Assembly (NCBI GenBank): GCA_013288105.1
Contig: JABDCM010000001.1
Span: 55,659-119,658, forward strand
DNA length: 64,000 bases
Source: Chlamydiota bacterium
GTDB taxonomy: Bacteria > Chlamydiota > Chlamydiia > Chlamydiales > JAAKFR01
Direction: 5' to 3'
A program made the position numbers and the translations under genes. The notes beneath the pieces were generated by a model. That model had not been told where the DNA came from and did not search any database. It saw nothing but the letters and a program-made list of their open reading frames with translations. Shown one piece after another: positions 5,213 to 6,334 of this stretch (positions within the stretch are counted from its first letter, which is position 1; each line of letters starts with the position of its first letter).

Positions 5213-6334
5213 ATGGGGACCTTTATCAACCTGAGTTTTGGGTTTTTCTTCCTCAAATTCAGGAAGTTTACTTGCATCTCTTGTGCTTTTCTGACTCGTA
5301 AAGGGCCTTTGGCCATTTACTTCGTCAAAAAATCCCAAGATCTGCGGTGTAAACTTCTCCGACTTCGAGGAAGACAACCCAAAACTCAGGTTACCAAATT
5401 CTTTTTCCTTCTTTTTCTTTCGTGTCTCCCTATCCAGCCTAGCTTAAAAGCAGCAACTTATAGTCCAGTGAGCGGAAAATGGTCCCCAGATAAGTATGCA
5501 GCAACTCTGCCGGCAGCGGATCATTATACTCGGGGCTATCAATCATTATCAGAAAAAGAGTGGGACTCTGCTCTCACAGATTTCATGGTGATTGCTTATG
5601 GCTTCCAAGATTCCCCCTTCTATACAGATGCTCTCTACTATTCGGGCATCTGTTACTATTTTATGGGGGATCTGGATTTAGCGAATAAGCAATTTTCGAA
5701 ATACCTTCTTGTAAGCGGAAAATTGAAGTATTTTGAAAAAATTTTCGAGTTTAAATACCACATCGCTGAACATCTCAGGACAGGAAAGATAACCCATCTT
5801 TTTGGTCGTGCGGACTTCCCCAAACTATTTCCTAATAAAAAAAGTGCGATTCCTATTTATGATGAGATTATAGCCGCTCTTCCCGGTAAAGAAATTGCGA
5901 TTCAATCTCTTTATAGAAAAGGGGAGACGCTGTTGGTCGTCAAAGAATATAAAGAGAGTATTGAGGCCCTTCAACTTCTCACACGTCGTTTCCCAACCCA
6001 TCAATTGGCCGCTGATGCTTATCTAGTAATCTCCAAGATTTATATTAAACAGACGGAATTGGAACCGCAAAATCCAGACTTTCTGGCTTTAGCGAAGGTG
6101 AATCTTCAACGTTTTCATAAACATTTTCCTGGGGATGAGAGAAGGGGGTTAATGGAGAAAAATATTGCTGATATGCAAGAAATGATCGCGGCGGGGTTGT
6201 ACGATACAGGCCGTTTTTATGAAAGAAAGAAAAAGTTAGGAGCCTCTAAGGTTTATTATCAAGATACCATTCGTAAGTATCCTGAAACTGTGGCTGCGGA
6301 AAAAAGTCTTCACCGTTTAAAAGAGATTACGTGA
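5213..6334 (+). CDS. BamD/YfiO-like TPR outer-membrane lipoprotein; the ORF reads through MITE copy A
   Basis: A GGAG sequence lies 8 nt before ATG 5213. Lipobox LFLSC follows just after the element. TPR-like segments YYSGICYYFMGDLDLANKQF and AADAYLVISKIY. No canonical start codon between the element and the lipobox. Confidence 0.7.
   Translation: MGTFINLSFGFFFLKFRKFTCISCAFLTRKGPLAIYFVKKSQDLRCKLLRLRGRQPKTQVTKFFFLLFLSCLPIQPSLKAATYSPVSGKWSPDKYAATLPAADHYTRGYQSLSEKEWDSALTDFMVIAYGFQDSPFYTDALYYSGICYYFMGDLDLANKQFSKYLLVSGKLKYFEKIFEFKYHIAEHLRTGKITHLFGRADFPKLFPNKKSAIPIYDEIIAALPGKEIAIQSLYRKGETLLVVKEYKESIEALQLLTRRFPTHQLAADAYLVISKIYIKQTELEPQNPDFLALAKVNLQRFHKHFPGDERRGLMEKNIADMQEMIAAGLYDTGRFYERKKKLGASKVYYQDTIRKYPETVAAEKSLHRLKEIT
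5228..5392 (+). mobile_element. MITE-like element, long form (165 bp including flanking A/T), copy A
   Basis: Perfect 17-bp terminal inverted repeats AACCTGAGTTTTGGGTT / AACCCAAAACTCAGGTT. Near-identical to 47838-48002. Flanked by CA / TA. Confidence 0.85.

Follow-up and report, generated by a model that had tools for sequence, protein, structure and literature searches.

The Rickettsia palindromic elements (RPEs), reportedly described by Ogata et al. in 2000 and 2002, are short palindromic repeats of obligate intracellular hosts that form a long hairpin, occur in many dispersed copies and lie repeatedly in frame in genuine genes, conserved enzymes included, where they leave the open reading frame (ORF) open. 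Here we describe an element with the same properties in a 64,000-nt stretch of DNA from a Chlamydiota bacterium, an environmental chlamydia (contig JABDCM010000001.1, positions 55,659 to 119,658; hereafter the window, meaning the whole stretch that was analysed), where it lies inside the signal-peptide-coding part of a gene for a BamD-like protein. In R. bellii, 526 RPE copies have been counted, 53 of them in protein-coding genes (PMC1458961). The chlamydial family differs from RPEs in belonging to another phylum, in having clear inverted termini of 17-21 nt together with a 5-bp target-site duplication, and in using two reading frames that yield contrasting peptides, one of which (frame F2, defined below) is seen only adjoining signal peptides. 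We liken it to RPEs by function and claim no membership in their families.

Two groups of miniature inverted-repeat transposable elements (MITEs) also invite comparison. The Correia elements of Neisseria (CREE/NEMIS) are MITEs of ~100-160 bp with inverted termini, a long hairpin and internally deleted size classes, and they are often co-transcribed with their neighbours, the RNA hairpin being a plausible RNase III substrate, as would hold for the chlamydial family. However, Correia elements duplicate TA, whereas the chlamydial family duplicates 5 bp; they are mostly intergenic and are known for promoter, IHF and RNase III effects and not for in-frame translation, and no promoter-like site was found in the chlamydial element. 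MITEs derived from IS630/Tc1-mariner share with it the inverted repeats, the small size and an AT-rich target that starts with T and ends with A. An origin of the IS630/mariner type was nevertheless rejected, since the duplication is 5 bp (TATTA, TAATA, TAAAT) and not TA, so that TA-duplicating chemistry does not fit.

A third comparison concerns the protein. Extended signal peptide regions are long N-terminal extensions of Sec signal peptides in some autotransporters, which are still exported. They resemble the BamD-like protein described here in placing a long charged extension ahead of normal n-, h- and c-regions, and provide an analogy for tolerance only: their extensions are conserved protein motifs, whereas that of BamD would be translated mobile DNA with no sign of peptide-level constraint.

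A palindromic MITE in frame within bamD

The insert in the BamD-like gene is a non-autonomous palindromic MITE, in frame within the part of the gene that encodes the signal peptide (Table 1). Its core of 163 bp holds no transposase gene, and the termini that bound it (written ACCTGAGTTTTGGGTT) form perfect inverted repeats of 17 nt at 5228-5244 and 5376-5392, with the sequence AACCTGAGTTTTGGGTT. With up to three mismatches allowed, the window has 11 occurrences of this 17-mer, against a chance expectation of 0.29. The RNA of 5224-5396 folds into a single long hairpin (-78.8 kcal/mol, z = -12.5), which in the folded 5' end of the predicted mRNA constitutes a separate domain beginning 16 nt past the AUG. 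The identification of the insert as a MITE, made in an original prediction from the letters of the sequence, is therefore upheld by inverted termini, a target-site duplication, multiple copies and one long hairpin. The only match in an Rfam scan of the element was a microRNA-precursor hairpin (27.7 bits, where the gathering score is 83), a chance hairpin similarity, and assignment to a known RNA family was rejected.

We determined the length of the duplication from 32 complete copies from the window and other genomes, using the core ACCTGAG...CTCAGGT as the reference and shifted positions as controls. A flanking direct repeat of 5 bp is perfect in 21 of the 32 and agrees at four of five positions in 5 further copies; the shifted controls gave no perfect 5-bp match in 186 comparisons. 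TATTA, TAATA, TAAAT and TTCTA are the usual duplicated targets. The copy at bamD entered codons 5-6 at a target of the form TAYCA, with duplication of 5 bp, and the two flanking copies of the target now differ at one position. The original prediction had read a 2-bp TA duplication and an added length of 165 bp (55 codons). The bases left of the core at bamD are CA, however, and with a duplication of 5 bp the insertion adds 163 + 5 = 168 bp, or 56 codons, which still keeps the frame. The sequence before insertion thus reads ATG GGG ACC TTT AYC AAA TTC and encodes MGTF[I/T]KFFFLLFLSC, one residue shorter than the MGTFITKFFF restored previously; the expected empty bamD site is ATGGGGACCTTTAYCAAATTC. 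A scan of JGI metagenomes yielded neither a near-identical empty bamD site nor further copies from the window's genome. Of the earlier description of a 165-bp in-frame MITE in the BamD signal peptide, what stands is the in-frame MITE; the TA duplication, the length and the exact restored peptide do not, and the lipobox is not supported (see below).

The predicted BamD-like nature of the host gene was substantiated. The 373-residue product matches Pfam family YfiO (PF13525) at 44.4 bits, over the cutoff of 25, and falls marginally below the cutoff of the BamD model of NCBIfam, TIGR03302 (79.7 versus 81.4). About 100 homologues are found in Chlamydiota metagenome-assembled genomes (MAGs), several of them named BamD by their source, and the nearest are just 58-60% identical. 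In an alignment of 80 sequences the window protein retains 48 of the 51 columns that are conserved at 95% or more among homologues, and the ORF downstream of the insert is intact over 313 codons. Translation of 5213-6334 reproduced the reported order of MGTFI, 55 element-encoded codons (NLSFG...PKTQV, in full NLSFGFFFLKFRKFTCISCAFLTRKGPLAIYFVKKSQDLRCKLLRLRGRQPKTQV) and TKFFFLLFLSC; the core itself is translated in this forward frame as (N)LSFGFFFLKFRKFTCISCAFLTRKGPLAIYFVKKSQDLRCKLLRLRGRQPKTQ(V). Loss of BamD is unlikely to be tolerated, as the protein is essential in E. coli and Neisseria.

The same alignment located the uninterrupted N-terminus, a comparison that the original prediction had suggested. 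Homologues begin with short signal peptides, for example MRLFPLFLSLALVPIFLFGG/YSHVSGKW (a slash marks a cleavage site), and their Met is positioned right behind the element. Ahead of the SGKW motif there are 86 residues in the window protein and 30 in the restored one, and the latter value lies inside the range of 63 homologues, whose median is 25. The restored sequence, MGTF[I/T]K-FFFLLFLSCLPI-QPSLKA/AT, combines the short basic n-region, the hydrophobic core of ~10-12 residues and the small-residue cleavage site of a Sec-type signal peptide, and its Kyte-Doolittle peak falls at the same residues as in homologues. We placed the possible signal peptidase I site, SLKA/AT, by alignment with homologues (...LFGG/YSHVSGKW), which themselves look like signal peptidase I substrates (...LFGG/YS). 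The claim of a textbook lipoprotein signal peptide is not supported: FLSC fits a relaxed lipobox pattern only, a strict lipobox is present in none of the 63 homologues and a relaxed one in three, and the Cys of FLSC aligns inside the hydrophobic region of homologues and is not conserved. The 56 extra residues are strongly basic (13 Lys/Arg versus 1 Asp/Glu), and their Lys/Arg-rich tail, RCKLLRLRGRQPKTQVTK, abuts the hydrophobic core.

All homologues have a start codon directly before the hydrophobic core. The window bamD is without one, and the element must therefore be translated if the gene is expressed. From ATG 5213 to the core no in-frame ATG or GTG is present, and a scan of the ORF verified that no in-frame ATG, GTG or TTG separates the element from Cys71. 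The GGAG said to precede ATG 5213 by 8 nt is indeed in place, and a promoter-like site lies further upstream, outside the element (Table 1). No promoter-like site was found within the element, whose sole terminator-like match is a small internal stem, and it was rejected as a source of a promoter or terminator.

Other copies in the window and an element-free relative

Six element copies or fragments are present in the window. The second full copy, also flanked by a duplication of 5 bp (Table 1), lies in the same frame and orientation as that at bamD, after codon 9 of an ORF at 47811-48689 (protein P0107), and splits MQESLRYR from IIQFLIISLWVMSSAQG at the boundary of n- and h-regions, as in bamD. 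When the element is removed, P0107 reads MQESLRYR-IIQFLIISLWVM-SSAQG/SEVV, a canonical signal peptide, and its restored length of 236 residues falls among homologues of 223-244 residues, which have short signal peptides. Another Chlamydiales genome (L032) is syntenic with the window at 43.7-48.7 kb, and its orthologue of P0107 (MKWIVALFLLSGMLQA/DE..., 226 residues) is free of the element. The family therefore has both dispersed copies, in the window and at 45 loci elsewhere, and an empty site in a relative. The two full copies differ from each other by four non-synonymous and two synonymous changes.

Two of the remaining copies are deletion derivatives of 95 bp. One occupies nearly all of the gap 11087-11194 between typA/bipA, which ends at 11086, and an rsmB-like gene that ends at 11192; this copy could act as a bidirectional terminator hairpin. 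The other has supplied the end of an ORF of the DUF687 family, in which the stop codon TAA is composed of the TA of the duplication and the first base of the element (42143-42239); the insertion may have replaced the original DUF687 C-terminus.

Distribution and structure of the family in Chlamydiota

In a genome collection that does not include the window's genome, the 21-nt terminus ACCTGAGTTTTGGGTTTTTCT is present exactly in 45 stretches from 13 other species-level genomes. Carriers include the Chlamydiia HKST-UBA02, with many copies, as well as Simkaniaceae, Parachlamydiaceae, several Chlamydiales MAGs (among them a complete chromosome of 2.4 Mb) and MAGs labelled Verrucomicrobia. No copies were found in viral contigs or plasmids. 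Solo ends in two of the loci (L010 and L034) adjoin housekeeping genes. The copies fall into size classes of 161-164, ~95-109 and 58 nt. Their termini are invariant and the interior is strongly diverged, yet it still forms a hairpin: RNAalifold applied to 15 copies from ~10 genomes returned 43 pairs, with compensatory double changes in 12.

Neither the window nor the 46 loci yielded a cognate autonomous element with matching termini. Pairs of inverted termini 0.4-7 kb apart enclose no transposase, the Pfam families of the window's 48 ORFs include no transposase among the 25 listed of 72, and the loci contain no high-identity multi-copy ORFs such as a repeated insertion sequence would give. We found no published account of MITEs, palindromic elements or RPEs in Chlamydiae or chlamydia-like genera in a literature coverage that is incomplete, and the novelty of the family is not proven; in tolerating translation, this palindromic MITE resembles RPEs.

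Element-encoded segments in proteins

Read from the first base of its core, the element always runs into TGA (ACC TGA), and the frame one base ahead gives NLSFG...PKTQV in either orientation. In the window copies both the forward (F2) and the reverse (R2) version of the latter frame are stop-free. Among 16 full copies R2 is open in 7, against ~7% expected on shuffling, and F2 in 3, against ~11%; the copies are related, and the trials are not independent. The HKST-UBA02 subfamily has three stops in the forward frame, all of which are absent from the subfamily of the window's genome.

An exhaustive phmmer search with the F2 and R2 peptides against 1.84 billion representative proteins detected 50 proteins at E<=1e-3, 25 of these at E<=1e-10, nearly all of them matching R2 (NLSFGLSSSDSEEF...GEKPKTQV). 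By comparison, a word-indexed protein search with the element peptides returned 8 short ORFs only. Many of the phmmer matches are long, genuine proteins in which the segment lies inside or adjoins a Pfam domain (KdpC, Ogt, Pkinase, TsaE, SKI, AAA_30, UDPGP, PP2C or Y_phosphatase; Table 1), and two loci (L022 and L020) carry intact elements inside ORFs at the DNA level. Copies inside ORFs add a multiple of three nucleotides (163+5 or 100+5), whereas the two 95-bp copies of the window (95+5) are outside coding sequence. At the kdpC locus of a JGI metagenome contig (L046, 680-830) a decayed copy, its left terminus missing one T and its right terminus eroded, is still in frame; such inserts therefore persist for long, and old insertions are retained in functional genes. 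The analogy with RPEs, already drawn in the original prediction, gains strength from these 50 proteins with element-encoded segments, and the family appears to behave as RPEs do, with predicted translation inside many real proteins.

The two frames are found in different settings. F2 matches are BamD, P0107 and a third protein (P0154) with the segment ahead of MRNLPFCLALLSC; all three adjoin signal peptides. The F2 peptide is basic and partly hydrophobic; loops and N-termini are where the R2 peptide, which is hydrophilic, is found. Selection on the F2 peptide at bamD was considered and rejected, as the stop-free frame is common to intergenic copies and differences between copies are mostly non-synonymous.

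One further match, P0109 (113 residues), carries an element of the window's subfamily whose R2 peptide is broken by ~55 unrelated residues at the position of the hairpin tip, as if a further insertion had nested in the element; the protein probably comes from the window's genome.

Expression of the interrupted bamD

The reading that we consider the probable one is tolerated read-through, in which the native promoter would still drive bamD and ribosomes would start at ATG 5213 and pass through the hairpin. The n-region, placed before the hydrophobic core, would thereby grow by the basic stretch of 56 residues, and the whole pre-sequence would be removed after Sec export, leaving mature BamD unchanged and the insertion nearly neutral. 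Insertions would survive in signal-peptide n-regions, N-termini and surface loops, and we propose that it is because they survive at such places that both full copies of the window are at an n/h boundary. Several observations weigh against this reading. A pre-sequence of ~80 residues is far beyond the range of the 63 homologues, and the added peptide has short hydrophobic stretches (FINLSFGFFFL and CISCAFL) that might misdirect targeting. Ribosomes could be slowed by the hairpin of -79 kcal/mol, 16 nt past the AUG, or RNase III could cleave it, as it does Correia elements, and cleavage would detach the start codon from the rest of the coding sequence. Elsewhere the forward F2 frame is rare (2 of the 50 phmmer matches, in addition to the window BamD), a second copy of bamD may exist beyond the 64 kb of the genome examined, and the assembly has at least one homopolymer frameshift, in secY.

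Some of these points would equally suit a bamD damaged by the insertion and now inactive or strongly down-regulated, be it a young pseudogene or a gene with a transcript that is cleaved or blocked at the hairpin; the open frame would then just be left over from a recent event. The extreme pre-sequence (86 residues versus a median of 25), the very stable hairpin right after the AUG and changes in three of the 51 near-invariant columns are what such damage might leave, and the ~4% difference between the full copies means that the event is not ancient. We nevertheless regard damage as unlikely, since the 313-codon ORF is intact with an lptE-like gene overlapping its stop in GTGA, one of the five duplicated bases has already mutated, so that the insertion is not brand new, and P0107 carries a like insertion in the same frame. 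Moreover, dozens of conserved enzymes elsewhere keep their inserts, the decayed one in kdpC included, and BamD is generally known to be essential in model Gram-negative bacteria. Translation could instead begin inside the element, at TTG 5309 or at a non-canonical codon, for instance ATT 5315 or CTG 5342, giving a shorter pre-protein and leaving ATG 5213 unused. TTG 5309 is in frame with AAAGGG directly upstream, it recurs in the second copy, and the n-region that the element would then supply, AIYFVKKSQDLRCKLLRLRGRQPKTQVTK, is basic, as n-regions are. The spacing of this Shine-Dalgarno-like sequence is just 3 nt, however, the TTG is buried in the apical stem of the hairpin, the element contains no promoter-like site of its own, and the strong GGAG-N8-ATG is intact and outside the hairpin; internal initiation thus seems to us more doubtful still than damage.

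Co-option, by which the hairpin or the peptide would regulate BamD (and the LptE-like protein), for instance through RNase III or translational pausing, or would confer a new targeting property, would account for two exported proteins within 64 kb sharing the frame, the orientation and the n/h position of the insert. It would also agree with the compensatory changes that keep the hairpin across lineages and with the loss, in the forward frame of the window genome's subfamily, of all three stops of HKST-UBA02. Yet the two intergenic short copies are also stop-free in F2 over the part they retain, which makes the open frame a trait of the subfamily and not a response to the bamD locus; four non-synonymous against two synonymous changes speak for no peptide constraint, and differential survival of insertions is the simpler account. 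We consider co-option improbable to a marked degree. Lowest of all we place an assembly artefact, a repeat-induced misjoin that set the element between unrelated sequences, which is extremely improbable. The element is multi-copy and the assembly has the secY homopolymer frameshift, but both flanks belong to one gene (the left one has the promoter-like site, Shine-Dalgarno sequence, ATG and n-region, the right one the hydrophobic core and mature BamD), they bear the expected 5-bp duplication, and an identical protein is recorded from the public assembly. Tolerated read-through from ATG 5213 accordingly remains the reading that we prefer.

Neighbouring genes and additional features

The product of the gene that overlaps the bamD stop has a clean lipobox (LFLIAC/GYH) and a weak match to LptE (Pfam E = 0.0097). 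The arrangement suggests a bamD-lptE-like operon, in which the second gene, too, would rely on transcription through the element.

Table 1. Features of the bamD locus, element copies in the window and proteins with element-encoded segments.
Feature	Position in window	Strand	Remarks
Sigma-70-like promoter TTGACA-18-TATGAT	5154-5183	+	11/12 consensus matches; upstream, outside element
Shine-Dalgarno-like GGAG	5201-5204	+	8 nt ahead of ATG 5213
BamD-like ORF reading through element	5213-6334	+	373 aa; Pfam YfiO, homologues
Target-site duplication, left copy TATCA	5224-5228	+	
Palindromic MITE core	5229-5391	+	163 bp, ACCTGAG...CTCAGGT
TTG, codon 33	5309-5311	+	Sole canonical in-frame start between ATG 5213 and hydrophobic core
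Target-site duplication, right copy TACCA	5392-5396	+	1 mismatch versus left copy
Remainder of original signal peptide	5396-5452	+	K62; core FFFLLFLSCLPI; Cys71 at 5423-5425; possible signal peptidase I site SLKA/AT
LptE-like lipoprotein gene	6331-6873	+	180 aa; GTG start overlaps bamD stop (GTGA)
95-bp deletion derivative	11095-11189	+	TTTTA duplication; between convergent typA/bipA and rsmB-like stop codons
Truncated copy, left end alone	30671-30701	-	
Solo terminal repeat	35821-35836	+	
95-bp derivative	42145-42239	+	First base completes TAA stop of DUF687 ORF 40892-42145
Second full copy	47839-48001	+	96% identical; perfect TATTA duplication 47834-47838 and 48002-48006
P0157, KdpC			Element segment splits domain
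P0152, Ogt (DNA_binding_1)			Segment within domain
P0122, protein kinase			Segment within kinase region
P0137, TsaE			Segment N-terminal
P0158, shikimate kinase			Segment after codon 3
P0142, RecD-like helicase			Segment near N-terminus
P0118, UDPGP			Segment near N-terminus
P0132, PP2C			Segment internal, before domain
P0151, tyrosine phosphatase			Segment near N-terminus
P0126 (= L022), OppA-like			Segment internal
P0123, 2957-aa protein			Segment internal, 1673-1729

Other features of the window are recorded here in their own right. A frameshift in nine consecutive G (27662-27670) divides secY into two overlapping ORFs, 26843-27802 and 27627-28214; eight G would restore the sequence. A sequencing error in the homopolymer is the probable cause, with slippage in this essential gene as the alternative. 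The 23S rRNA gene (57930-62260) spans 4331 nt versus a model of 2925 nt. Within it, a match to a group I intron (59888-60561) scores below the gathering threshold, with E = 3e-8, and contains an ORF for a LAGLIDADG endonuclease (60083-60589; Pfam E = 2.6e-27); a second, weak group I match is at 61626-61895 (E = 0.004). A 23S intron is known from Simkania, which that of the window recalls. Finally, a non-coding stretch of 1.07 kb between dnaE and a HAD-hydrolase gene (2600-3670) is built of nested repeats: inverted arms of 279 nt (2651-2929 and 3217-3495) that are 99% complementary, tandem units of 58-62 nt (GGGGTTTGGGGCGTAACCCC...) oppositely oriented at the ends, and a unit of 128 nt that occurs twice in the centre.

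Significance

We put forward, tentatively, that the family is the first chlamydial counterpart of RPEs to be recognised: a phylum-wide MITE with frozen termini and a covarying hairpin interior, whose two stop-free frames would suit two protein contexts, the hydrophilic R2 peptide enzyme loops and N-termini and the basic, hydrophobic F2 peptide signal-peptide n-regions. Essential genes such as bamD would remain functional while carrying it, and the likeness to RPEs would be a convergent outcome in compact intracellular genomes.

Palindromes that lie in frame in coding sequence have hitherto been treated as a peculiarity of Rickettsia. Chlamydiota are another ancient obligate intracellular lineage, often associated with amoebae, and a second, unrelated family in this phylum would suggest a more general outcome; in gene-dense genomes, harmless translation may be what allows a mobile element to persist. 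The interrupted bamD offers a natural experiment on the length that a Sec signal peptide may reach in an essential gene of outer-membrane biogenesis. For annotation, these elements give predicted chlamydial proteins long extensions at the N-terminus and odd segments inside, and they break MAG assemblies; predictions of signal peptides, effectors and domains are distorted by both.

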